Virus record (IMG/VR): IMGVR_UViG_2711768134_000006
From: an uncultured virus (IMG/VR IMGVR_UViG_2711768134_000006)
Lineage: Duplodnaviria > Heunggongvirae > Uroviricota > Caudoviricetes
Direction: 5' to 3' (one strand)
Length of the DNA stretch: 64,000 bases
Of this stretch, positions 7,989-58,425 are shown piece after piece. The first letter of the stretch is position 1, and every line of letters starts with the position of its first letter. The notes under the pieces are model-generated. The model had not been told where the DNA came from and did no database searches. It saw only the letters and a program-made list of their open reading frames with translations. The position numbers and the translations under genes are program-made.

Positions 7989-8222
7989 TTATTCTTCTGT
8001 CGTATCTAACAATCTTGTAACTTTTTTTACAGACCAATCACATGGAAGTAAACCCTTGTCTATTAATTCATATAGCATACAATTATGTTCATCAAGATTT
8101 TTCATATATCCAAGAGGACAATTTTTGCAATGTTTAGATTTTATACAAATATATTTAATAATATTTAAAGCACTTAAAGTGTTCTCTATATCTTTTTCTG
8201 TTAATTCAGTTTGATTTTCCAT
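7989..8222 (-). CDS. Small Cys-rich protein
   Basis: C...CKNCPL...C...PCDW; GGAGG RBS. Confidence 0.65.
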   Translation of the reverse strand: MENQTELTEKDIENTLSALNIIKYICIKSKHCKNCPLGYMKNLDEHNCMLYELIDKGLLPCDWSVKKVTRLLDTTEE

Positions 8223-10029: not shown

Positions 10030-11010
10030 TTATCTTTCAATATTAATTAACATCTCCTGTTTTAATGATTGATATATTGGATTATCTTCAGTCATTTTTT
10101 TTGTATTACTATCTTTGTTTTGATGCATATAATGCCTATACATTGTTTCTATACTCTTATTACCTGTAAACTTTCCTATCTCTTCTAATTTTACACCTGT
10201 TTCAGACATTAACGAAACAAAACTATGTTTAAAACTATGTGGGGTAACATGAGGCAATTCAGCTAACTTCAATGCTTTTTCTATAAGTCTTTCAATTGAC
10301 CTTGTTGTTAATCTTGAATTATTTTTAGATAAGAACAAAGCATTGTTGCTATCTTTACTATCTTTTTTGCCTTCAATTTGGTTTCTAAAATATAAAAAAT
10401 CTCTATACATTTTTAATACTTGTTTATTTAAACCTACATTTCTTTTTAATTTTCTTTTCCCTATTACTTCAAAATTTCCATTCAAGAAATTTATATCTTT
10501 TATATTCATTTTTTCTACTTCATGTATTCTCATACCAGTGAAAATAAGTATGTTTATAATCAGATTATCTCTGCAAGTATCATAGCTTTTATTATCAACA
10601 TATAATTTATTCATAGTTTCTAATAACTTAATAATTTCATCTTTAGTTAATATCTTTTTCTCAGATTGAATCTTGTCTCGTAATTTTCTAACGTAATTAA
10701 CTTGATTATCTTTAATTTTACCTTTAGCTCTGAGGAAACCACAATAAGCTTTAAATGATGCTCTTTTTCTATTTATTGTAGATGCTTTCATTCCTTTTTC
10801 TTTTAATAAGATAAGCCATTTTTCTTGTATATCTGTAAAAAGTACTTTATCAAGTTCTTCCATTGTACAATCTTCTTTTTCAAATAAATATCTTATGCCT
10901 TCTTTTACATCAGCCCTATATGCTTTTATTGTTTTTTCATCTCTATCATTATATAACTTTAAATTTAATAAAAATTCTTCTAGGGCTTCTATTGCAGTCA
11001 TATGTATCAC
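10030..11010 (-). CDS. Tyrosine recombinase (XerC/D-like) with divergent catalytic motifs
   Basis: SAM-like N-domain, TGMRIHE, GKRK, TPHSFKHS, FTGN, YRHY. Confidence 0.85.
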   Translation of the reverse strand: MIHMTAIEALEEFLLNLKLYNDRDEKTIKAYRADVKEGIRYLFEKEDCTMEELDKVLFTDIQEKWLILLKEKGMKASTINRKRASFKAYCGFLRAKGKIKDNQVNYVRKLRDKIQSEKKILTKDEIIKLLETMNKLYVDNKSYDTCRDNLIINILIFTGMRIHEVEKMNIKDINFLNGNFEVIGKRKLKRNVGLNKQVLKMYRDFLYFRNQIEGKKDSKDSNNALFLSKNNSRLTTRSIERLIEKALKLAELPHVTPHSFKHSFVSLMSETGVKLEEIGKFTGNKSIETMYRHYMHQNKDSNTKKMTEDNPIYQSLKQEMLINIER

Positions 11011-11032
11011 ATCCTTTTCATTTTATATTTAT

Positions 11033-11061
11033 ATCATATACCTATTTTATTTAGTTGTCAA
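11033..11061 (-). promoter_or_regulatory. SigA promoter of the recombinase gene, with an AACTAAATAAAAT element in its spacer
   Basis: TTGACA-17-TATGAT on minus strand. Confidence 0.75.
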
Positions 11062-11231
11062 CATTTTTCAGTAATTTTATATTTTATTTAGTTTAATTAA
11101 TCTTATCAAAATATAAAAATTTTTTTGATAAGATATTAAATTAAAACTACGATTTTATTGTCATTCTTATTTATATTAAAATAAATTCTTAGATTTATAT
11201 TTACATAACACAAATAACACATTTAATGAGT

Positions 11232-11600
11232 TTATTTTTTATTCCACTTTTTTAACATATTACTCAAATCAGACTCATTTATTTTATTTAAAGCTATTTC
11301 TATAGCTAAATTTTCTTTATCATAATTCACATCTATATTATATTTGTCACAAAGTATTAGCAATGTAGCTAATCCAGTTCTTTTATTTGCATCTATAAAT
11401 ATATGTCCTTGTATAATACCTACTACAATATGAGATATTTTTTCTTCAACTGTAGGATACATAACTCTACCAAATACCTCCTGGTTTATACCGTCAATTA
11501 TACTTATAGCAAGATTTTTATTTCTAATACCTATTCCAGCTCCGCCATATCTTTCAATCATCTTTTTGTTAATTTTACATATATATTCAAGTGTAATCAT
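11232..11600 (-). CDS. doc: Doc/Fic family toxin
   Basis: HIFIDANKRT Doc motif. Confidence 0.9.
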   Translation of the reverse strand: MITLEYICKINKKMIERYGGAGIGIRNKNLAISIIDGINQEVFGRVMYPTVEEKISHIVVGIIQGHIFIDANKRTGLATLLILCDKYNIDVNYDKENLAIEIALNKINESDLSNMLKKWNKK

Positions 11601-11770
11601 TTACTTGCCAACCTTCTGAATACATCATCATTTTCTTCTATACACTTATCTATTTCATTATCAGAAACCGGACAAAGATTATCTAATTCTTTTCTAATTT
11701 CTTGACTATATATATAACCTTTTGATTTTATAAATTCAAGTACTTCATCTATTGTTATTTTATCGACCAT
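11597..11770 (-). CDS. Putative Phd-like antitoxin (57 aa, not in ORF track)
   Basis: GGAGG RBS; ends ...ENDDVFRRLASK; ATGA overlap with doc. Confidence 0.75.
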   Translation of the reverse strand: MVDKITIDEVLEFIKSKGYIYSQEIRKELDNLCPVSDNEIDKCIEENDDVFRRLASK

Positions 11771-11846
11771 AATAATGCCTCCATTTTATATTATAGTTAT
11801 ATTTATATTACCCTAAAATAGTAATAATTACAACAATACAAAAATG

Positions 11847-12419
11847 TTATTTATCATACTTATTTATGTATTCTAATAATGCCATGCTCATCAAATCAGA
11901 TTTATTAAACTCTCTAAATTTTTCACAAAACTCATCAAATAAGTTCCATGCATCTTTATTCAACCTAACTGTAGTCCTTATAGCATCTTTTGAAGGTAAA
12001 TCAATTTTAATACCATCCTGTACAACTTCTATTACATTTGTATCTTCTTTATTCTCAAACCAATTTAATACATCTTGTATTTTATCATAGTCTTTTGCTA
12101 AAGAGATTATATTATTTTTAAATTGGTTGTCAATTACTATATTGTGATTATTGTCATCTTCTATTGTCATATTAAATGTATTATCATTATTACTCTGTTG
12201 TCTATTGTTTACTACCTTTGTCATACTATTGTCACCAATAAACACATACTCATCATTTATACGTTTATAACCTCTTTTAGTAAGATATTTTCTTATGCTA
12301 CTTTCAGACACACCAAGCCCTATAGCAACTTTAGTCAAACTCTTACTATCATTTAACTTATTATTAATATATTTAACTATATATATTATATCATTATTTT
12401 TCAAATCATTCCAAGTCAC
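11847..12419 (-). CDS. DNA-binding protein (N-terminal HTH, C-terminal RHH-like)
   Basis: SLTKVAIGLGVSESSIRKYL; RTTVRLNKDAW...KSDLMSMALLEY. Confidence 0.7.
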   Translation of the reverse strand: MTWNDLKNNDIIYIVKYINNKLNDSKSLTKVAIGLGVSESSIRKYLTKRGYKRINDEYVFIGDNSMTKVVNNRQQSNNDNTFNMTIEDDNNHNIVIDNQFKNNIISLAKDYDKIQDVLNWFENKEDTNVIEVVQDGIKIDLPSKDAIRTTVRLNKDAWNLFDEFCEKFREFNKSDLMSMALLEYINKYDK

Positions 12420-12605
12420 GTAATCACCTCAATTTAAGTATACTACACGAGATTACGATTGTCATACTATGTTAATCTTTTAATTCTACGTTTAATCTAC
12501 ATATCTTTCTAAACTATATCATTTTTTTACAATATTACATCTATTAATAAGTAAACAATAAAGTCAATATGCTGTAATTTAGTATATTGACTTTATATAT
12601 ACTTA

Positions 12606-14966
12606 CTACAAAATTAATCCTAAAGTGCTGTTATACTTTAACTTATTACTAGATTTTAGTACCATATATCCTTCTAATTTATTTATTAATTTCAAGTAAC
12701 ACAATCTATTAAATATAAATCCTGACACTTGAATTGAGTCACGTTGCAAATCTATATCTTCTCGATAAAAATCTTCCTCGAGAATAATTTTACAGTTTGT
12801 ATCAGTAGCTTTAAAAAGCTTAGATGCTTCGCTCTCATTATCAACAATATGTTTATAAGGTTCGAAATTAAATATTAAATCCAAACCATCGAAATTAGCT
12901 TTATACATACCAAAAATATTCTTAATTTCATTATCACAATTTATAAAACTATCTTCAAAATATTTTTTAACTACACTATTATCATAATATTCATTCAAAA
13001 TATTTTTTCTAATACTCATCGTAAAAATAGATTCTGTCTTTAATATTTTATTTAAAATAGATTTAGTTGTATTCTTAAGTTTGTCGTCATAAATTTCATC
13101 TTTACTAGGCAGAATATAAAAATTCCCATATTCACATTTATCATTACTATTACATTTACTCATTCTTTGTATTAAACTATCCATAGTTGCTAAATCACTT
13201 ATTACTATATTGAAATCTATGTCTAATGATATTTCTTGAGTAGATATCCAAACATCACCCTTTTCATCAAATATTTTATTATATTTTTCTTCTTTATCTT
13301 TAAATTTAAACCTATCATGCAAAACATTTATATCTGCATCATTATATTTATTTGATAAGTTTTCTTTTAAAAGCTTATATGTGCTATTAGCTGAGTCAAT
13401 AGTGTTTTTTATTATTAAAATTCTCTGTTTCTTTTCTAAAGCATTTTCAACTATTGATTTGATTTCTTTTTCTTTTATAAAAGAAACCTTTACATTTTTA
13501 CCTTCACAAATATCTTCTTCCTTGTTGCTCTCAATAAAAACTATCTCCCCTTTATCAGTGATATTTTCATTACATTCTTCTTGAAAAATAATTCCCTTGC
13601 TTATCATTTGCTCTTTATATGATTTTGGAAGCATAGTTGCCATTAAGTGAAAATCAACATTTAAATACTTACATGCAAACTGTATAAAATATATTAAAAT
13701 TAAAAACATCTTTGGATTCAATAAATGAACTTCATCAACAGTTATAGATGCATTTTTTACAGATGCAAATATCTTTTCATACCCTGGAAACTTAAACATA
13801 CTTAATAATAATTGGTCAATAGTTGCAATTAAATATGGTTTACAAAGATTCAAACTCAAATCTATATCTCTTAAAGTTACTTCACAATCTTGTTCATTAT
13901 AATTTTCACTATATGAATATAAATTTATATCTCCATTAAGTAATCCAAGATAATCATTTTTAAATATATTTTTTATGTAAAAACTTTCGGATGGAAATTG
14001 ATTTGGAACTAAAAATAATTTTCTTTTAAAATTCTTTCTACAGTCAGCAACTTTTTTCCCTGACCCAGTAAATGCAACAGTCAGAACATTTTTTCCAGAA
14101 AATTCTCTCAGCCTTTTTTGTACAATATTGAACTCTATATTATTATTTTCTAAATTATCATGATTATTATAGATATCATTTAAAATCATTTCATCAATTT
14201 CTTTATCAGTAAAATCGTTATAAAATTTTATATCTTTATTTGTGCCTTGTGCAACATGGTCTATTAAATTCAACATACCTTTATACAAAATATAGTTAGC
14301 TCTTCTTTGATTTAAAACTGAGTCATCTATTTGACCATTACTATAATCACTCTCTATAACCATTTTTTCACTTAATTTGTCTAAGTAATCATAATCTAGC
14401 ACATCCTCATTAAATTTAAAATCTATATTTAAAATTTCACTTATATAATCTTCTATATCTTTCAGATTAAATGATTCTTTGTTTTCTAAAATTCCATTGT
14501 CAATATACTTATAAATTTCTTCTTGTACTTTAGTAGTAGTTAATTTCATATAATCTATATAGCTTCCATGATGCAGCATTATGTTTTTATATATATAGAA
14601 TTCATCTTCTTCTGATAAGTTCATTTTTTCTAATATTGATTTTAAAAATGCTCCAGAAAACACATTGTGTCTTGCTATCTTTTCTAAAGATTTTTTTTCA
14701 AATTCTAATTTTTTTATTTCTTCTTTTGAAGAACTAGATGATATTTTATTATTAATTTCTATTTTTTGTTGTGTAATTAAATTAATTTTCCCTAAATCGT
14801 GCAAGGCACAACACACCTTTAACATTTCTATATCTTTATTTGAATATAAATTTGATTCTGATATAACTTCTAACACTTTAAACAAATTCTCAATATGTTC
14901 AACTAATGTTTGTTCTTGTTGATTAGTAATTAAATTGTATGACTTAGCCAATATTTCTTTTTTCAT
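12606..14966 (-). CDS. cas3: Stand-alone Cas3 (HD nuclease + degenerate SF2 helicase)
   Basis: LAKS start, EH, LHDLGK, RH, LHHG, D; TGSGKK, TIDQLL, DEVH, LHDRF, SLDIDF, DSLIQR. Confidence 0.9.
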   Translation of the reverse strand: MKKEILAKSYNLITNQQEQTLVEHIENLFKVLEVISESNLYSNKDIEMLKVCCALHDLGKINLITQQKIEINNKISSSSSKEEIKKLEFEKKSLEKIARHNVFSGAFLKSILEKMNLSEEDEFYIYKNIMLHHGSYIDYMKLTTTKVQEEIYKYIDNGILENKESFNLKDIEDYISEILNIDFKFNEDVLDYDYLDKLSEKMVIESDYSNGQIDDSVLNQRRANYILYKGMLNLIDHVAQGTNKDIKFYNDFTDKEIDEMILNDIYNNHDNLENNNIEFNIVQKRLREFSGKNVLTVAFTGSGKKVADCRKNFKRKLFLVPNQFPSESFYIKNIFKNDYLGLLNGDINLYSYSENYNEQDCEVTLRDIDLSLNLCKPYLIATIDQLLLSMFKFPGYEKIFASVKNASITVDEVHLLNPKMFLILIYFIQFACKYLNVDFHLMATMLPKSYKEQMISKGIIFQEECNENITDKGEIVFIESNKEEDICEGKNVKVSFIKEKEIKSIVENALEKKQRILIIKNTIDSANSTYKLLKENLSNKYNDADINVLHDRFKFKDKEEKYNKIFDEKGDVWISTQEISLDIDFNIVISDLATMDSLIQRMSKCNSNDKCEYGNFYILPSKDEIYDDKLKNTTKSILNKILKTESIFTMSIRKNILNEYYDNSVVKKYFEDSFINCDNEIKNIFGMYKANFDGLDLIFNFEPYKHIVDNESEASKLFKATDTNCKIILEEDFYREDIDLQRDSIQVSGFIFNRLCYLKLINKLEGYMVLKSSNKLKYNSTLGLIL

Positions 14967-15060
14967 GGTAAACACCCAACTTTCAAGATAATTTAAAAGC
15001 ATATTTTACTATAATTAACATAAAAAATTATCTTTATATATTTGTAACACCAACATATAC

Positions 15061-15603
15061 TTATTTCTCTTTTGATTGTATCATTTTAAAAACATCTGTT
15101 TGCAGTAAGGAAGCATACATCTTTTCTACTATAGGCATGGCCTTTTTTCTAAAATCTTCTGATAAAACATAATTCTCATCAATATAAGATTCTTTATATG
15201 ATATAATATCAAAATTTAATATTTGAAGAGACTCTACATAATAGCTTTCAAATTGCTTAATGTTTTCAACTAAGTCTTTTGAAAAATGTATAACATCATA
15301 TGACTTAACTTTGTTAAAATCAATATATCTATTAGAATCTGTATAAAAATCAATATTTTCAGAAGTAAGTTTTAAAATATTTGCATTACTATGTATATCT
15401 ATATCATAAGGTATTGGGTCTCTAACCAAATCTGGACAAGCTAATGTAATAACAAACCATTCAGAGTAAAATTCATTTTTGGGGCAACACCATAATCCAC
15501 CTTTTATTTTATTTTGCTTACTTACTCCATTAGGTTTTTTAAATTTTTCTTTTGATATTTCTCCTATTCCATATGTAAAATACATGTTTTCCCTCTTTTC
15601 CAT
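15061..15603 (-). CDS. Hypothetical protein
   Basis: 180 aa, KGGLWCCP motif. Confidence 0.65.
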   Translation of the reverse strand: MEKRENMYFTYGIGEISKEKFKKPNGVSKQNKIKGGLWCCPKNEFYSEWFVITLACPDLVRDPIPYDIDIHSNANILKLTSENIDFYTDSNRYIDFNKVKSYDVIHFSKDLVENIKQFESYYVESLQILNFDIISYKESYIDENYVLSEDFRKKAMPIVEKMYASLLQTDVFKMIQSKEK

Positions 15604-15689
15604 AAAAATTAATATTATTAGTTATATTGTACATTACCATATCTTATTTTTCTATTTATATTTTATTGAAATTTAATAAACAAGTTAAA

Positions 15690-16223
15690 TCAATTATTAT
15701 TAAGCAAATTATTAAAAAGAATAATATCATGATAATAATAATTTTCTATACTTCTTTCAACTATTACTTGCAATTCTTGTTTACGATTTTCAATATTCTT
15801 TTTTATTTCTTCTGAAAAATCTGACAAACTATCTTCTAGATTTCTTTCAATTAATTCGTCAAAGCTGTCTTTGTTGAATTTTTTATAACTTTCCCAATCC
15901 AAATCTTCATTTTTAATTTTACACCATTTTTCAAATTCTTCATAATCATTTAAGTAACAAGGTTCTCCTAGTAATTCATTAACACTTATTTTTTCTTTGT
16001 TTAATTCACAAATAAAAATTTCTCTTTCATAAATATCTTCTACATATTTAAGCGAGTTATGAACTGATATAGCTTCAACTTTACCTTCTAAATTTATATA
16101 TATTCTTATAGTATTATCTTCTGCTAAAAAACTTTCCTTATAAACTTTTATAGCTTCTTCTTCTATTTTATCTATATTCTTATCTATTATTTTTAAAAAT
16201 CTTTTTATTTTTTTATAATTCAT
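15690..16223 (-). CDS. Hypothetical acidic protein
   Basis: 177 aa with AGGAGG RBS. Confidence 0.7.
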   Translation of the reverse strand: MNYKKIKRFLKIIDKNIDKIEEEAIKVYKESFLAEDNTIRIYINLEGKVEAISVHNSLKYVEDIYEREIFICELNKEKISVNELLGEPCYLNDYEEFEKWCKIKNEDLDWESYKKFNKDSFDELIERNLEDSLSDFSEEIKKNIENRKQELQVIVERSIENYYYHDIILFNNLLNNN

Positions 16224-16283
16224 CTTAATTCCTCCTATTTTTAAATTCTATTTTATAGTTTTTGAAAATAAATTTAATTACAC

Positions 16284-16616
16284 CTAGTATTCTATTTCTA
16301 TTAATTTATTTTTATCCTTTAGATACTGCTCAATACCTTCTTCAACTTTACCTCTAAGCTCTGATAATTCGTCACAAAATTGGTCACATTCACTAGGCTG
16401 CTCTAAGTCTAAAATTTCATCATACTCTCTTGTAAAAATTTTATGGTTATATGGTATATATATAGTATATTCTATATATCCTTTAAATCTAAAATCTTGA
16501 CTCATTTTCATATCTACCTTTAAATCATTAACTTTAATTGTGCAATTTTCTATATTTTCTATTTTAAATCTAAAATCAGGTATATAATGCCACTCTTCTT
16601 TAAAATATTTCTGCAT
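16284..16616 (-). CDS. Hypothetical protein
   Basis: 110 aa with GAGGTG RBS. Confidence 0.7.
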   Translation of the reverse strand: MQKYFKEEWHYIPDFRFKIENIENCTIKVNDLKVDMKMSQDFRFKGYIEYTIYIPYNHKIFTREYDEILDLEQPSECDQFCDELSELRGKVEEGIEQYLKDKNKLIEIEY

Positions 16617-16630
16617 ATCAATTCACCTCT

Positions 16631-16948
16631 TTATAATTTCTCTATATTTATTATTTTTATTATAGAACTACAAACATCTTCCTCGTTTTTTTCTACCACT
16701 TCAAATTCAATATTTACATCTATATCATAATCTTCACCTAATCCACAATATGTATAATTACAAGCTCTTATATATTCTTCCGTGTCTCCAGATGTGAAGA
16801 AGTCCCAACTATTTGTTCTTTCTACTGTTCTAGCATATAATTCTTGTACCTCATTATCAAATTCAATTATATTAAATTCCCCCTTTTTTAAACTTTCTAT
16901 TTCTTCTAAAAATTCTATTATTTTATTTTCCATTTTAGTCATCTCCAT
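16631..16948 (-). CDS. Hypothetical acidic protein
   Basis: 105 aa in operon. Confidence 0.65.
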   Translation of the reverse strand: MEMTKMENKIIEFLEEIESLKKGEFNIIEFDNEVQELYARTVERTNSWDFFTSGDTEEYIRACNYTYCGLGEDYDIDVNIEFEVVEKNEEDVCSSIIKIINIEKL

Positions 16949-16951
16949 TTT

Positions 16952-17458
16952 TTAATTATTTTTATATACAACAGTTCTTTCGCTCTTTTCAATTTTTGTA
17001 AGATACTCTAAAAATTCTTTAATTTCTTGCTTGTTTATGCCTATAAATTCGTGTCTAATTTCACATTTTTCAATACGTGTAGAATATTTCTCTTCTAATT
17101 TATAAAACCTAGGTCTTATATTAGCTATAAGGTCACTTTCTATATTTTTGCTACATAAGCTATTTACATATATTAAAATGTTTTCTATATTTTCTATGTC
17201 TACTTTGTCACCCTTTGAGTAATAAAATTCAAATTTCAATCTTATTCCTATTCTACTGCTAATTTCACCATGACTCCATGTTTCAATTTTTAAACTCTTT
17301 CCAGATATTTCTTTAACGCACCCCACGTGACCGTTTGCACAATCTTTAAGACTTATATCAAATATATCATTGTTGATTTTATTAATCTCTTTTTCTATCA
17401 TTTTAACATTCTCTTTATTAACTTTTAAATCTAATATTGTACTAAAATCTATATTCAT
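16952..17458 (-). CDS. Hypothetical protein
   Basis: 168 aa with GGAGG RBS. Confidence 0.7.
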   Translation of the reverse strand: MNIDFSTILDLKVNKENVKMIEKEINKINNDIFDISLKDCANGHVGCVKEISGKSLKIETWSHGEISSRIGIRLKFEFYYSKGDKVDIENIENILIYVNSLCSKNIESDLIANIRPRFYKLEEKYSTRIEKCEIRHEFIGINKQEIKEFLEYLTKIEKSERTVVYKNN

Positions 17459-17534
17459 GTTTTAAACCTCCATTTATTTTATATTTTAATTATAACATCT
17501 GTTGGTGAACTATATTTGTACCAATCCAAAATTT

Positions 17535-18617
17535 TTAACAATTTACTCCTCTATAAAATAAATGCCATATTAATTCTATTTTTCTTGATATTTCTTCTAT
17601 TTTTCTAATACTTTCAACTTTAGATTCTTTAATTTCTTTAAATCCATTTATGAAATATCTTGGGTTTTCTTGTATTAATGTCTCTATAATAAGTTCTTTT
17701 GTTTTTTCCGTACTTGCATTAGGAACTTGTTTTATTATTTCATCGAATATTTCAACTATTTTAAGTACATTTTCTTTTATCTCATTAGCCCATGTGTTGT
17801 TAAATTTTATTTCTCTAGCTATCTTCTTAGCTTCTTCATAACTTATGTTATAATCTTTAACCTTTTTTAATTTGTGTGGTACTTGTGTTTCATATTCCAG
17901 TAAGCTCCATATTTTACTTTCTTCTACAAATTGAGAATTTTTTAATGTCTGATTTATATGAAATGCTTTTTGCTCTAAAGAATTATGTTCTAAAATATCT
18001 TTGAAATTATCTATAAAGAATTTAGCACTTTCTATACTTCTCATTCCTTCTTTTATTCTTTTAAACTTTCTTTTACATTTTTCTGTCATTTCTTCTATGC
18101 TCTTGTCTTTTACTTTATGATCTCCGTCTTTTATTTTTTTCATTTTAATCTTTTCTAGTTCGTCAACAAAATTTAAAACATTATCTCTTATTTCATTAGC
18201 CCATTCAACTTGTTTTTCAGAACCATTTAACGTTAATACATTAAATGAATTTTCTTTTATTTCTTGACTGACATTATCTTCCTCATAAATTTCTTTTGAA
18301 TACATTTCAATTATTTCATCAGTAAATAAACCTATAAATTTTTTTAACGTATCAGAGTGTTGTGATATAAAATAAAAATTTTCATCATTGCAATCATAAT
18401 AAATTTTTAATTCAGAAATATTACCTAATTTTTCAACACATTTAGCTCTCTTAGTTACTCCTAGTCCTTTTCCTAATCCAATTCCAAAATCATTGTTTTT
18501 AATAAATTCTTTAAAATTAATTTTGCTTGGAATTTGACTTATATAAATCCTCTTATGATTTCCACCTTGCCATAATTTATATTCTTTAAGTAAATTTTTT
18601 TCTAATAAAATTCCCAT
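17535..18617 (-). CDS. Hypothetical protein with duplicated WANEI domain
   Basis: LNGSEKQVEWANEIR...FFIDNFK and WANEIK...YFINGFK. Confidence 0.75.
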   Translation of the reverse strand: MGILLEKNLLKEYKLWQGGNHKRIYISQIPSKINFKEFIKNNDFGIGLGKGLGVTKRAKCVEKLGNISELKIYYDCNDENFYFISQHSDTLKKFIGLFTDEIIEMYSKEIYEEDNVSQEIKENSFNVLTLNGSEKQVEWANEIRDNVLNFVDELEKIKMKKIKDGDHKVKDKSIEEMTEKCKRKFKRIKEGMRSIESAKFFIDNFKDILEHNSLEQKAFHINQTLKNSQFVEESKIWSLLEYETQVPHKLKKVKDYNISYEEAKKIAREIKFNNTWANEIKENVLKIVEIFDEIIKQVPNASTEKTKELIIETLIQENPRYFINGFKEIKESKVESIRKIEEISRKIELIWHLFYRGVNC

Positions 18618-18799
18618 TTTTATACCTCCTTATAAATATCTAATTGAATGGTGAACTATTTTGTATCAAATAAAGATTTTATATTGTAAAACCTTTTAAT
18701 TTCCCATCTTTAATAATGAACGATAAACCCATTGTAGACCATCTATAAGCATCATACAAACTTATTTTATGTATATCTTTTATATAACATATCATAATA

Positions 18800-19285
18800 T
18801 CATTCTCCTATATAAAATTTTATGCAATTAATTAAATCAATTTTATTATCTAATTTTAAGTACCAATCTCCCATACAAGAAGGATAGAAATAGTACCTAT
18901 TATCCTTATTTATATATGATATTGAACTTCCATCACTTAAAAACACTTTAATGTTTCCATTGTTATTTAACTTATTAATCACGTATATATTACTTAAATG
19001 ATTTATATTACTTGATAGCTCTTTGTAAGTTGCAACTGCATTATCTAAATCTTTTTTATTATCAAAACTATAATTCCAATCGCCTAAACATGTAGGATAG
19101 AAATTATAAACTTGCTCTTTAGTATCATATAAAACTACACTTTCATCTTCTAAAACTTCAATAACTCTATCCGTAGATTCTACATAAAAATTATCTAATT
19201 CAGCAGCCTTAACTTTTGTTACTCCTGCAACTCCTACAATGATTAAACCTAATAACATTCCAATAAGTATATTTTTAAATTTCAT
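18800..19285 (-). CDS. Secreted protein with internal duplication
   Basis: Signal peptide ending VKA; FYPTCLGDW / FYPSCMGDW. Confidence 0.75.
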   Translation of the reverse strand: MKFKNILIGMLLGLIIVGVAGVTKVKAAELDNFYVESTDRVIEVLEDESVVLYDTKEQVYNFYPTCLGDWNYSFDNKKDLDNAVATYKELSSNINHLSNIYVINKLNNNGNIKVFLSDGSSISYINKDNRYYFYPSCMGDWYLKLDNKIDLINCIKFYIGE

Positions 19286-19602
19286 TTTTATATCCTCCTA
19301 GTTTATAATTATGACCCCGTACAAGCCTCTATAAGCTGTTTGAAAATCATCTTAATGTATTTATACCTTTTGATTTTTATAATCTTTAAAATCTTTTTAT
19401 CAAATCACTATCATTATCATTTGAACTATAATACTATAGCTATAATAATAGCGATTTGATAACTCATATATCATATTAAAAATATAATTTTAAACTCTTT
19501 TATTACTTCATGTCCTATATTAAAGATATGACACTCTTTTATATAAAATATAATCCTCATCTATATAAAATTCATTGTCATTAATTCATCGCCTACATAC
19601 AT

Positions 19603-28710: not shown

Positions 28711-28970
28711 AATATACCATCTCATGGTACGCCCATAGCATGGGATATCGAAAAATTCGATGTACCACGAGATGGTATATCGAAAGAATCGCTATATTTC
28801 AACGTTTTTTCGATTTTTGCCTCGATATACCACGAGATGGTACATCGAAAAATTAAAGTATCTGAAATAATTTAAAAATTATATAGTTATGCACAGATGA
28901 AAATACAAATTGTTAATAAAATTGCAACTTATCAACATGTTATCAACAACTTACTAACAACTTATCAACA
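28711..28970. other. Putative replication origin: palindromic iterons plus DnaA-like boxes
   Basis: TCGATRTACCACGAGATGGTAYATCGA at 28757 and 28822 plus two variants; TTATGCACA at 28887; TTATCAACA-type boxes at 28929, 28940, 28951, 28962. Confidence 0.75.
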
Positions 28971-29184
28971 GGGAATAAAACTAAATAAAATACTAAATTG
29001 ACAAAAATAATATAAAATGTTAATATATAATTATAGATAAAATTAAGATAAAATATTAAATTAATAGGAGGAAATTTATATATGAAAAACATTTAACAAC
29101 TAAATAAAATTAAAAAACAAAATTGAAATGGAGGTTAAAATATGAAGAAAAGTAAAGAATACAAAAAGATGAAAGGACTAGAAG

Positions 29185-54960: not shown

Positions 54961-55197
54961 GGCAGCTTATATAGCTGTCTTTTTTGTATAGAATAAAAAA
55001 GTTTATTATAACAGATAGTTATTATTTTATTAGTGTGTTACCAAGAATAAATTCCTTTTATCTAATATTTATTACAAATAATATATATTTTTATCTAATG
55101 AATGATTTTATATTTTAGTGTAAATTGGTATATTTTACCATTTACACTTGATATAATAAAAAATATAAACTATTTAAATAGAATTAGGGGGAATTGT

Positions 55198-58100
55198 ATG
55201 GAAAAGTATCTTTTTAATCAAAAACTATTAAAAGAAAAATATAATATGGAAATAGACCTAGACTTATATGACTATAAACAAAGACGATTAATTTTAGAAA
55301 AATGGAGAGATATAATTGATAATAAATCTATTGATAAATTAAATGAAATTCAACTTAAGGAAATATTTGTATCGGATATTTTAAACAAAGTTCTTAGGTA
55401 TAAAAGTCTTACGGACAATATAATGGATTATAATATAAAACCAGAAGAAAAAACTAAGATTGATGGAACAAGAGCTGATATTGTACTAGGCTATTTTTCT
55501 AATGAAGAAAGTGACTATAGAGTAGCAATAGAATTAAAAAAACCAACAACTAATTTAGATGCAAAACAACTAAGAAAAAACAATCATAATACACCAGTAG
55601 AACAAGGGTTTTCTTACTTGCCTAAATATGGAAGAAATTGCACATGGCTTATTGTCTCTAACTTCAAGGAAATTAGATTGTATAATGCTAATGATGCTAC
55701 AGAGTATGAATTTTTTTCTATTAAAGATATATATGAAAAAGATGATGTATTTAAAAAATTTTTATATCTTTTGTCATCTAAATCTTTAATGACCAAACAT
55801 GGAAAATCTAGGGTTGAAGTACTTTGGGAAGAGAATATAAAGCAAGAGGAAGCCATAGAAAAAGGTTTTTATGACCTATATAAAAATACTAGATTAAATT
55901 TATTTAATGATATACTTTTAAATAATAAAGATATTTTGGATGTAAAAACTTGTTTAACAAAGACACAAAAAATATTAGATAGAGTTATATTTGTTTGTTT
56001 TGCAGAACATAAAGGATTAATACCAGAGAATATCTTTGAAACATGTATTCAAGTAGGGAAAAAAAGTGTATCTAGGTTTGGAGTCTGGGAACAAGTAAAG
56101 GGTCTGTTTGAATCTATAGATTTAGGTAATCAGGAAAAGGGCATAAATCAATTTAATGGAGGTTTATTTGCAGAAGATTATATTTTGAATAATCTAAAGA
56201 TACCAAATAAATGTTTCGAGAATTTATACAAGTTATCTTTATATGATTTTAACAGTGATTTAAATGAAAATATATTAGGGCATATATTTGAAAAATCTAT
56301 ATCTGACTTAGAAGAACTAAAACTAGAAATAAATCAAGTTAATATTAAGAAAAAAGATAGTAAGAGAAACAAAGATGGGATATTTTATACTCCCAAATAC
56401 ATAACGAAACATATTGTTAATAACACCATAAGAAGATATTTAGATGAGAAGAAAAAAGAATTAGGCGAAGATAAACTTCCAGAACTAAAAGAAGAAGATT
56501 ATGAAACAGTTGTGGTTGGTAGGAATATACAGCATAAGCGTGTACAAGTTGTAGAATATAAAACTGATAAAATTCAAAAATATATAAACTTTTGGAAAAA
56601 TTATAGAGACGTTGTAAAAAATATAAAAATTTTAGACCCAGCTTGTGGAAGTGGAGCTTTTTTGAATGAGGCTTTTTCTATGTTAAAAAAAGAAGCTGAA
56701 TCAGTAAACGAAATACTTCGTGATTTAACCGATGGTGAGATATCATTTTTTGACTTAGATGCTAATATATTAAAAAATAATTTATATGGAGTTGATTTGA
56801 ATGAAGAATCTGTGGAAATAACTAAATTGTCTTTATGGCTTAAAACAGCTAACAAGTATAGTTTATTAACTAGCTTAGATAATAATATAAAATGTGGAAA
56901 TTCTATTATTGATAACAAAGAGGTTGATTGTGCTAAAGCTTTTGATTGGAATGTTGAATTTGAAGATGTAATGATGTCAGGAGGGTTTGATATTATTATT
57001 GGAAATCCTCCATATGTTTCAACTAAAATGATTCCAGAAAAGCACAGAGAATATTATTGGAAAAAATATAAAGATTTACTAATTAGTGAAATGGATTTAT
57101 ATGAATTATTTTTATATGAGTTTTGCGAAAATAAATTAAAGCAAGATGGATTTTTGGGATTTATAACACCTAATACGTATTTCACAAATAAAAGCTTTGA
57201 AAATTTAAGAAAATATTTACTTAAAAATGTATGTGTTGATACTATTTTAGACTTTCCATATAGATTTTTTCCTTTTGAGGATGTAAACAAGGAAACCGCT
57301 ATAATTATAATTAATAAAAAATTGCCGAATATTAAAAATAATATAAATCTTATAAGTATAAATAAAGAAAATATGAAAAAGATTAAGATTTTCAATAGTA
57401 ATACATACAACTCTGAAAATAAAATTACTATAAAAAGTATTATAAATGATTTGGATAATAAAATTGTGATACAAAGCAACCCAATAATATTAAAAATGCT
57501 CAAATGTAAGCATAAATTAGGGGATTATTTAAATTTACATAAAGGTTGGATGAGTGTCCCTAATAAAACAATTTGTGATGGAATTATATATGATAAGAAA
57601 ATATTAAGTAGTAATGATATAAAAGATAATAACCAATTAAATGGAATTTTAAATAAATGTTTGGAAGGTAAGGATATACATAGATACTATATTGATAAAG
57701 TAGATAAATTTGTAAATATTGAAAACATGGATGACAAAACTATGAGGTGGCACAAATCACCTAAGATAATAACACAAAGAATAGTTGGTCAAAATCAAAA
57801 TAAGATAATTGCAACAGTAGATATTGAAGGTACTATAATATTCCCTAGTGGAAATATCATAAATTTAATTAAAGAAGATAATTTGGAAGATATATATTTT
57901 TATATAGGAGTTATAAATTCTAGTTTAATAAATTACTTTTATAATAAATTTTATGGAGAATCAAATACCAACTTGACAGCAGATGCAGTAAAAAATATAC
58001 CAATACCAAATTTAAAAAATGTTGATAAATCAATTATTATAAATAATAGTAAAATACTAATAAATAAATATGGTAAATTATACTTATACACTAATAAATT

Positions 58101-58425
58101 TTTGAAAAATGTATTTAAGATATTGAGCATAGATAATAATCCATCTAATAAATTATATAATTTTTATTTATTAGATTTTGATGAATTTTACAATGAACTT
58201 AGCAAAAAAAAGAAGCTTTATTTTAAGAATATTGATGAGTTAGAGGAATATTTTAATAAGTACAAAGATGCTATTAATAGAATCATATACGATATAAATG
58301 TATGCGAAAATACAATCAATACTTTTGTATATGATTTGTATGGTATAATTGAGCTAGAAAGTAAATCTATAGAAGATATATGTAAGACAACAAAAGACAC
58401 TGTGGTTACAAGTTTAGCTTATTAA
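55198..58425 (+). CDS. Type IIG restriction-modification enzyme (Eco57I-like, m6A MTase fused to nuclease)
   Basis: AD...IELK nuclease, FYTP, LDPACGSGAFL, GNPPY, C-terminal TRD. Confidence 0.9.
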   Translation: MEKYLFNQKLLKEKYNMEIDLDLYDYKQRRLILEKWRDIIDNKSIDKLNEIQLKEIFVSDILNKVLRYKSLTDNIMDYNIKPEEKTKIDGTRADIVLGYFSNEESDYRVAIELKKPTTNLDAKQLRKNNHNTPVEQGFSYLPKYGRNCTWLIVSNFKEIRLYNANDATEYEFFSIKDIYEKDDVFKKFLYLLSSKSLMTKHGKSRVEVLWEENIKQEEAIEKGFYDLYKNTRLNLFNDILLNNKDILDVKTCLTKTQKILDRVIFVCFAEHKGLIPENIFETCIQVGKKSVSRFGVWEQVKGLFESIDLGNQEKGINQFNGGLFAEDYILNNLKIPNKCFENLYKLSLYDFNSDLNENILGHIFEKSISDLEELKLEINQVNIKKKDSKRNKDGIFYTPKYITKHIVNNTIRRYLDEKKKELGEDKLPELKEEDYETVVVGRNIQHKRVQVVEYKTDKIQKYINFWKNYRDVVKNIKILDPACGSGAFLNEAFSMLKKEAESVNEILRDLTDGEISFFDLDANILKNNLYGVDLNEESVEITKLSLWLKTANKYSLLTSLDNNIKCGNSIIDNKEVDCAKAFDWNVEFEDVMMSGGFDIIIGNPPYVSTKMIPEKHREYYWKKYKDLLISEMDLYELFLYEFCENKLKQDGFLGFITPNTYFTNKSFENLRKYLLKNVCVDTILDFPYRFFPFEDVNKETAIIIINKKLPNIKNNINLISINKENMKKIKIFNSNTYNSENKITIKSIINDLDNKIVIQSNPIILKMLKCKHKLGDYLNLHKGWMSVPNKTICDGIIYDKKILSSNDIKDNNQLNGILNKCLEGKDIHRYYIDKVDKFVNIENMDDKTMRWHKSPKIITQRIVGQNQNKIIATVDIEGTIIFPSGNIINLIKEDNLEDIYFYIGVINSSLINYFYNKFYGESNTNLTADAVKNIPIPNLKNVDKSIIINNSKILINKYGKLYLYTNKFLKNVFKILSIDNNPSNKLYNFYLLDFDEFYNELSKKKKLYFKNIDELEEYFNKYKDAINRIIYDINVCENTINTFVYDLYGIIELESKSIEDICKTTKDTVVTSLAY

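Follow-up and report, generated by a model that had tools for sequence, protein, structure and literature searches.

An orphan cas3 gene with altered helicase motifs in a phiCD211-like Clostridioides phage, a candidate Cas-derived anti-CRISPR

Anti-CRISPRs derived from Cas proteins have already been described. According to Katz et al. (bioRxiv 10.1101/2023.06.24.545427), Listeria elements encode homologs of Cas5, Cas8b, and Cas3 that are anti-CRISPRs, and IMG/VR holds 358 orphan viral cas genes, which are often found near acr genes. That viral orphan cas genes, Cas3 homologs included, can be anti-CRISPRs is therefore published, and what we describe here is a further candidate. It is an orphan Cas3-like gene at positions 12606..14966 (minus strand) of a stretch of 64,000 nucleotides (nt) from an uncultured virus of the class Caudoviricetes (IMG/VR record IMGVR_UViG_2711768134_000006); this whole stretch is referred to below as the window. 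We use cas3* for the gene and Cas3* for the protein, both in the window and in their clade of phage and plasmid relatives. Along the lines of the known Cas-derived anti-CRISPRs, cas3* lies on a virus or mobile genetic element (MGE) away from arrays and cas operons, stands beside an acr homolog, and forms a clade of its own. The literature that we searched, which did not extend to the supplementary orphan-gene table of Katz et al., contained no account of motif erosion in a C. difficile phage Cas3 or of its testing.

The closest described systems resemble Cas3* only in part. AcrVIA2 and AcrVIA2.1 of Listeria elements are likewise described as MGE-borne Cas3 homologs outside cas operons, with a clade of their own and a place in anti-defense clusters. 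Their description sets them apart by ca. 24% identity to Cas3, the absence of an HD domain, and a DEAD box that is needed; they are reported to block type VI systems (AcrVIA2.1 also types I-B and II-A) at the level of the CRISPR RNA (crRNA). By that family description (helicase only, no HD), Cas3* falls outside the AcrVIA2 family, given its complete HD domain. AcrIB3 (a Cas5 homolog) and AcrIB4 (a Cas8b homolog) are presented as type I-B Cas proteins co-opted as faulty subunits, with one interaction kept and the function lost, which is how Cas3* might be read as well. Those two are said to enter Cascade and prevent DNA binding, whereas a Cas3 look-alike would act after R-loop formation. AcrIF3, a mimic of the Cas8f helical bundle, is described as a dominant-negative Cas look-alike at the Cas3 recruitment step (PMC11656645), but it mimics the Cascade side and sequesters Cas2/3, while Cas3* would mimic Cas3 itself. 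Finally, AcrIB2 of phage phiCD38-2 aims at the same host system, and a 57%-identical homolog lies near cas3*; in contrast to Cas3*, AcrIB2 is an unrelated small acidic protein, for which DNA mimicry and binding to Cas3 are proposed in its description.

The open reading frame (ORF) of cas3* (12606..15002, minus strand) is uninterrupted, as an earlier note on this sequence had stated, and stays open over 798 codons (798 amino acids [aa]) counted from the first ATG. The start at 14966, a methionine followed by KKE at which all homologs begin, gives a protein of 786 aa, and the in-frame ATG at 15002 adds the other 12. The 2,397-nt ORF is 100% identical to a gene of the Clostridioides phage LIBA6276 (MF547662.1, 134 kb, circular), where the record labels it "ATP-dependent helicase" (LIBA6276_00141); the window belongs to this phage, which is one of the large phiCD211-like siphophages that are kept as plasmids. 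The assignment to Cas3 is firm. Cas3* scored 132.5 bits against TIGR01587 (cas3_core; cutoff, 102.45) and 72.2 bits against TIGR01596 (cas3_HD; cutoff, 43.45), in both cases above the cutoff, and 1102 bits against the PADLOC Cas3b profile PDLC01760. Its domain order is that of a full-length protein, with an HD nuclease domain (14241..14921, about residues 28 to 254 by profile and alignment), a helicase, and a Cas3 C-terminal domain (12609..13082, residues 641 to 798 by domain search and model). The AlphaFold2 model (predicted local distance difference test [pLDDT] score, 80; predicted template modeling [pTM] score, 0.79) had as its best Foldseek matches in the PDB the Cas3 proteins of T. fusca, T. 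terrenum, and type I-C (E values of 1e-18 to 1e-17; TM scores of 0.5 to 0.6), so that Cas3* is predicted to have a full-length Cas3 fold.

The nearest canonical relative is the Cas3 encoded by the type I-B operon of the CD2455-CD2451 type in C. difficile (locus L010, protein P0007), whose gene order is cas6-cas8b-cas7-cas5-cas3-prmA. Since this host locus has no adaptation genes, it is called the partial operon, and Muzyukina et al. 2023 (PMC10732046) report it as the only interference-proficient one in C. difficile, with low spectrum counts for Cas proteins in cell lysates. The two Cas3 proteins share length, domain order, HD ligands, and the DEVH motif, at 75 to 77% amino acid and 83 to 84% nucleotide identity. 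Cas3* differs in being a phage orphan without cas5 to cas8 or an array and in its altered Walker A threonine, motifs Ia, Ib, III, and IV, two motif VI arginines, and one serine of the HD domain, as well as in a motif V that is two residues shorter. The nucleotide match between phage and host chromosome is limited to cas3 itself, from ca. 25 nt before the start to ca. 15 nt past the stop, at 83 to 84% identity. In a quick maximum likelihood search with IQ-TREE, six orphans formed one clade (Shimodaira-Hasegawa-like approximate likelihood ratio test [SH-aLRT] support of 100) inside a Clostridioides clade that also held the host proteins P0007 and P0008 (SH-aLRT, 100). On sequence grounds, these comparisons show that phiCD211-like plasmid-prophages acquired cas3*, without any other cas gene, from the partial type I-B operon of Clostridioides.

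The orphan status of the gene extends beyond the window. That no other cas gene or array accompanies it had been claimed for the window and now applies to the complete 134-kb LIBA6276 genome, in which we found no CRISPR array and no tblastn match to host Cas5, Cas6, Cas7, or Cas8b. PADLOC detected no Cas protein among the 65 other window ORFs of at least 90 aa (78 such ORFs are listed, 12 of which were omitted for overlapping a longer one), and an Rfam scan of the window gave no match. One CRISPR-like pair of 29-nt repeats at 28757 and 28822 was not taken as an array, being palindromic and present in two copies only.

The motifs of the helicase are where Cas3* departs from its relatives. Motif I (Walker A; 14052-14075) reads AFTGSGKK, with the lysine of the canonical GSGKT kept and the threonine replaced by lysine; the region of motif Ia (13980..14012) reads LVPNQFPSESF instead of LVPNKISAESF, with K335Q and I336F/L in all six orphans; and the canonical GLLHGD has become GLLNGD (13929..13946; H356N/D in all six). 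Motif II (TVDEVH; 13725-13742) is unchanged. Motif III (13626-13649) is HLMATMLP in place of HLMTATLP, with TAT changed to ATM, and motif IV (13308-13322) is LHDRF in place of LHSRF. Motif V (13212-13250), WISTQEISLDIDF against the canonical STQxVExSLD, carries a two-residue deletion relative to all 31 canonical proteins, and in motif VI (13143-13172), IQRMSKCNSN instead of IQRMGRCNRH, both distal arginines are lost (R616K and R619S/I). All of these lie on the minus strand. The change of the Walker A threonine to lysine is found in five of the six orphan proteins, with the Walker lysine (K316) kept, while in the sixth lineage the motif is N-S-V-K-T, with two Walker glycines gone; the copy on plasmid pHSJD-312 has N-S-V-K-M. 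Walker A has been altered independently in two cas3* lineages. A 10-residue insert specific to Clostridioides is also gone from most copies. The earlier note had listed the strings GSGKK, MAT, LHDRF, a shortened motif V, and QRMSKCNS, each of which we located at its position, and had called the helicase motifs dismantled. Seven motif sites are indeed changed with respect to the canonical proteins, but the word overstates the case, since Q295, K316, DEVH, T588-Q589, and Q612-R613 are retained, along with the eight HD ligand positions. Among SF2 NTPase motifs I, II, III, V, and VI, motif II alone is intact.

In order to judge these changes, an alignment was made of the six orphans and 31 canonical Cas3b relatives (down to 32% identity) out of the 47 proteins that a database search returned for Cas3*; three partial or short proteins (P0009, P0030, and P0039) and eight of ca. 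25% identity (P0041 to P0048) were excluded. Four C. difficile proteins (P0002 to P0005), with 88 to 95% identity to Cas3*, and a fifth (P0006), with 78%, have the same odd motifs, whereas the common host protein P0007, which represents a cluster of 734 sequences and is 75% identical to the window protein, has canonical ones. The orphan clade differs from the 31 canonical proteins at Walker A and at motifs Ia, Ib, III, IV, V, and VI, which confirms the deviations noted before. The 134 columns in which no more than one of the 31 canonical proteins deviates were defined as ultraconserved, and 12 of them are altered in all six orphans: S252Q in the HD domain, K335Q, I336F/L, H356N/D, A456T, T457M/I, S563D/N, one deleted residue of motif V, R616K, R619S/I, H620N, and R731K. 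Ten of the 12 fall within the helicase core. When each canonical protein was left out in turn as a control, 30 of the 31 broke only 0 to 4 of ca. 98 to 102 invariant columns, even with a nearest relative at 52% identity, and one outlier (P0040, 39% identity) broke 14. The six orphans broke 14 to 20 of 98 despite 76 to 78% identity to the host protein. The changes at invariant positions in the orphans therefore exceed chance, and the notable point is which residues are altered.

These data bear directly on whether Cas3* could be a still-active Cas3 with unusual motifs that supplements a low supply of the host enzyme and strengthens the CRISPR immunity of the lysogen. The Walker A lysine, DEVH, TQ, and QR are all kept, host Cas3 is reported to be scarce (PMC10732046), and Katz et al. 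(bioRxiv 10.1101/2023.06.24.545427) discuss a protective stage of newly captured viral cas genes. Against this, Cas3* has lost the Walker A threonine, both distal arginines of motif VI, and the canonical motif III and has a shorter motif V, all at positions that do not vary among 31 relatives with identities as low as 32%; a second lineage shows still greater destruction of Walker A; and the same operon-like block encodes an inhibitor of the very pathway that would be strengthened. We regard this as the least probable of the explanations considered here.

Full-length copies of cas3* are found at eight places: the window, phage ES-S-0107-01, three IMG/VR contigs (L003 to L005), plasmid pCd18_2, a contig of strain CD160 (L008), and plasmid pHSJD-312 (L089). 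Two more copies (L006 and L007) are cut by contig ends. The frame is open in all eight. Pairwise ratios of nonsynonymous to synonymous divergence between orphan copies (omega, by the Nei-Gojobori method, with domain values from bootstrapped pairs) were 0.18 to 0.25 overall (0.18 to 0.23 in the bootstrapped pairs), and they varied little by domain, with 0.12 to 0.24 for the HD domain, 0.21 to 0.26 for the helicase core, and 0.16 to 0.25 for the C-terminal domain. The upper 95% bootstrap limits were below 0.6 everywhere and no higher than 0.42 in the helicase core, with a synonymous divergence (dS) between copies that reached 0.48. Given an omega of ca. 0.2 in every domain, neutral decay, which had been named beforehand as a result that would refute the decoy or nickase reading, is rejected, and the helicase fold is maintained by purifying selection despite its altered motor motifs. 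The dS values varied up to tenfold between domains (between the window and L003, 0.28 in the HD domain and 0.02 in RecA2), which indicates recombination within cas3*, that is, a mosaic gene.

The gene has not been kept everywhere. Of seven phage records that matched at the nucleotide level, five contain only its last 117 nt: phiCD211 (two records), phiCDIF1296T, LIBA2945, and AR1086-1. Cas3 had been reported in two big phage genomes by Ramirez-Vargas et al. 2018 (PMC5786514), with superinfection immunity as the suggested role, and the earlier statement that phage cas3 is known from phiCD211-like phages is right in substance, although phiCD211 itself carries the 3' remnant alone. These losses fit a functionless gene, that is, a captured cas3 whose activity was lost and which is on its way out, as do the motif changes, which are what relaxed selection on ATPase activity would produce, and the extra cas3 3'-end fragments that lie downstream in two loci. 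Set against them are the eight open frames out of eight, maintained across dS values of up to 0.47 to 0.48, and an omega of ca. 0.2, whose upper confidence limit falls far short of 1 in every domain. A gene without function is accordingly improbable in our view.

The extra fragments are 121 nt long, resemble the 3' end of cas3 (82% identity to the host gene), and lie ca. 2.4 kb downstream of the full cas3* (L008:14839-14959 and L089:14892-15012), which hints at repeated recombination at the end of the gene. The second of these loci is on pHSJD-312 (NZ_MG973074.1), a 145-kb plasmid annotated with tcdB, where the orphan cas3* occupies L089:10034-12424.

The HD domain shows the opposite picture to the motor. 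The ligand strings EH (14895-14900), HD (14796-14801), RH (14667-14672), HH (14568-14573), and DH (14256-14261) were all located on the minus strand, and the corresponding positions (H36, H68, D69, H112, H144, H145, D248, and H249) are invariant in alignments of 18 and 37 sequences, so that the set is as complete as had been proposed. A conserved serine close to the ligands, S252, is glutamine in all six orphans. With an active HD site, Cas3* might instead be a repurposed nuclease, either an ATP-independent nickase guided by Cascade or a free nuclease of single-stranded DNA, which the prophage would use against competing elements or in its own DNA transactions and not to block host immunity. 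The eight ligand positions, which do not vary among the six orphans or the additional copies, the HD-domain omega of 0.12 to 0.24, and the superinfection immunity suggested for phage Cas3 (PMC5786514) are in line with this. However, LIBA6276 has no array of its own, and cas3* was lost in just those relatives that have a small array (phiCD211). The helicase and C-terminal domains are as constrained as the HD domain, a constraint for which a free nuclease would have no need, and the gene has an anti-CRISPR gene as its neighbor. At this divergence, eight residues would fairly often be retained by chance alone; given the ca. 10 to 20% divergence within the clade, ligand retention is weak evidence either way. 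Taken together, a repurposed nuclease seems unlikely.

The neighborhood of cas3* contributes a different kind of evidence. The acrIB2-like gene (15690..16223, minus strand, 177 aa) has 57% identity to phiCD38-2 gp27 (E value, 6e-58), lies two genes upstream of cas3*, and ends 723 nt upstream of it, the order on the minus strand being the acrIB2-like gene, a variable 180-aa ORF, and cas3*. Muzyukina et al. 2023 (PMC10732046) describe the validation as AcrIB2 of phiCD38-2 gp27, a fused homolog of phiCDHM13 gp28-29, and remark that the acrIB2-like gene of phiCD211 adjoins a short Cas3 fragment and a small array. In our searches, the phiCD211 acrIB2-like protein (161 aa) matched phiCDHM13 gp28 and gp29, phiCD38-2 gp27, and LIBA6276 at the window ORF 15690-16223 (minus strand). 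The gene has the same place in six of the eight full-length cas3* loci, four of the six being near-identical elements.

The same study (PMC10732046) reports that AcrIB2 copurifies with both host Cas3 proteins. Cas3* might then act against CRISPR or other defenses by another route, for instance by sequestering crRNA or Cascade subunits, by binding target DNA, or by serving the AcrIB2-like protein as partner or platform. Besides the copurification, this would agree with AcrVIA2 and AcrVIA2.1, Cas3-derived proteins described as acting on crRNA loading or stability without mimicry of Cas3 on Cascade, and with a carrier, CD160, that lacks a cognate Cascade. Unlike AcrVIA2, though, Cas3* keeps its HD domain and has 75% rather than ca. 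24% identity to host Cas3, and nothing that we found points to RNA binding. Such a route is, to our mind, distinctly unlikely.

The reading that we favor is that Cas3* is an ATPase-defective derivative of Cas3 that has been retained for an anti-CRISPR effect, namely competition with host Cas3 for Cascade bound to its target. An SF2 arginine-finger mutant is reported to lose ATPase activity and to be dominant (PMC2248767). In a first step, Cas3* would be unable to couple ATP hydrolysis to translocation. Being 75 to 77% identical to the host enzyme, it would in a second step still dock on the target-bound host Cascade, where it would fill the site to which Cas3 is recruited but degrade nothing processively, with a repairable nick as the most that it would leave. 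Competing in this way with scarce host Cas3, it would be a Cas-derived anti-CRISPR working alongside the AcrIB2 homolog. The anti-CRISPR interpretation, already put forward in the earlier note, has gained circumstantial support from the origin in the host interference operon, purifying selection, the AcrIB2 homolog, and the precedent of Cas-derived anti-CRISPRs, while the decoy on Cascade, its mechanistic half, stands as conjecture. As judged from sequence comparison, we hold the interpretation to be plausible and give the ATPase-defective competitor slightly less than an even chance. Its most specific form is doubtful: that ca. a dozen substitutions, mostly in the ATP motor, turned a full-length Cas3 into an inhibitor of its own pathway, which docks on the Cascade of the interference-proficient operon, stalls, nicks at most, and excludes the scarce host Cas3.

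Several observations weigh against an ATPase-defective competitor. Changes are not significantly more frequent inside the five motif windows (7 of 37 columns) than in the other ultraconserved columns (8 of 97; Fisher P = 0.12), so that the signal consists of changed invariant positions, without a statistically proven focus on the ATP site. Retention of K316, DEVH, Q295, TQ, and QR makes residual ATP binding by Cas3* possible. Because all HD ligands are kept, a docked Cas3* might nick the phage's own DNA. The 117-nt remnant in five of seven phage records means that cas3* is dispensable and has been lost repeatedly among relatives. In two of the eight full-length loci (CD160 and pHSJD-312), no acrIB2-like gene lies within 10 kb, and where the two genes do occur together, AcrIB2, which pulls down Cas3, could also bind Cas3*, which would complicate joint action. 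Finally, the CD160 assembly contains a cas3 of the full-operon type (30% identity to P0007) and a full-type cas7 (33 to 36% identity to the partial-operon Cas7), and we found no partial-type cas3 or cas7 in it; there is thus no cognate Cascade in this carrier, at least in the draft assembly.

The ORF between the acrIB2-like gene and cas3* (orf180; 15061..15603, minus strand, 180 aa, taken from the ORF list) occupies a variable slot, which in plasmid pCd18_2 holds an unrelated ORF of 173 aa. It has seven close homologs only, all in Clostridioides, no match in Pfam even at an E value of 10 or in the PDB (best E value, 1.4), and no counterpart in the related phages of the phage collection; its AlphaFold2 model (pLDDT, 48.7) was too poor for a structure search. 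The nearest named Atlas clusters are ADP-ribosyltransferases of the AcrIF11 type, at a score of 0.88 that is below the reliability level and serves as a lead only. On the other side of cas3*, directly downstream, lies a conserved ORF of 190 aa (11847..12419, minus strand), 88 to 96% identical in all related elements, including those without cas3*. A Fic/Doc toxin ORF (11232-11770), with a small partner ORF upstream of it, and an XerC-like tyrosine recombinase (10030-11010), both on the minus strand, follow just downstream of the cas3* block.

In four RNA sequencing libraries (one study, of a related prophage), contigs match parts of both cas3* and the acrIB2-like gene, which is a weak hint that both are expressed, with DNA carryover as a possible source. 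The contigs leave 15010-15343 uncovered, but since orf180 has no counterpart in related phages, this gap says nothing about its expression. A scan of 11000-19500 for promoters and terminators gave 99 promoter-like sites, compared to 79 expected, and no terminator; in such AT-rich DNA, the promoter scan is uninformative as to cotranscription of the acrIB2-like gene, orf180, and cas3*.

A second Cas-like gene accompanies the acrIB2 homologs of other C. difficile phages. It encodes 99 aa and is found beside these homologs as PHICD211_20147 in phiCD211 (L002:7597-7896, minus strand), gp30 in phiCDHM13, and gp28 in phiCD38-2, and 29 C. difficile phage records contain it; LIBA6276 does not. The protein matches the last ca. 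85 residues (406 to 487 of 491) of the host partial-operon Cas8b with 36% identity (E value, 2e-12), which suggests a phage-borne look-alike of the C-terminal, small-subunit-like domain of Cas8b. In phiCD211, the annotated four-spacer CRISPR lies beside the 117-nt cas3* remnant (L002:7264-7555 and 8001-8118). It consists of units of 66 to 68 nt that are 76 to 82% alike over their whole length, the "spacers" included, and looks like a degenerate tandem repeat more than a normal array.

Elsewhere in the window, the two palindromic 29-nt repeats at 28757 and 28822, 65 nt apart, are followed by runs of an 11-nt tandem repeat (28925-28970 and 29003-29054). This whole region (28757-29054) is intergenic, coincides with a switch in gene orientation and GC skew, and looks like an origin or operator region. 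An ORF of 1,107 aa (55102-58425, plus strand) matched type IIG restriction-methyltransferase profiles (335 bits with PADLOC), by which the phage carries a defense-type enzyme of its own.

Koonin and Makarova 2024 (PMC11656645) describe as an enigma that viruses have widely recruited pieces of CRISPR RNA as inhibitors and Cas proteins apparently only rarely. If our reading is true, Cas3* would be the first Cas3 mimic acting at the recruitment step, and cas3* a very young and legible Cas-derived anti-CRISPR, given that the protein is still 75% identical to the host enzyme and the few relevant changes can be read directly. Together with the 99-aa Cas8b look-alike, the neighborhood of acrIB2 would then be a place where several Cas parts became anti-CRISPRs. 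The host and the partner anti-CRISPR are already established, as is the assay, which uses a self-targeting plasmid in 630 delta-erm, and even an inert or active Cas3* would still date the speed of change in a captured cas gene. Since CRISPR immunity of C. difficile is a practical obstacle to phage-based approaches, it would be useful to know which large prophages disarm it.

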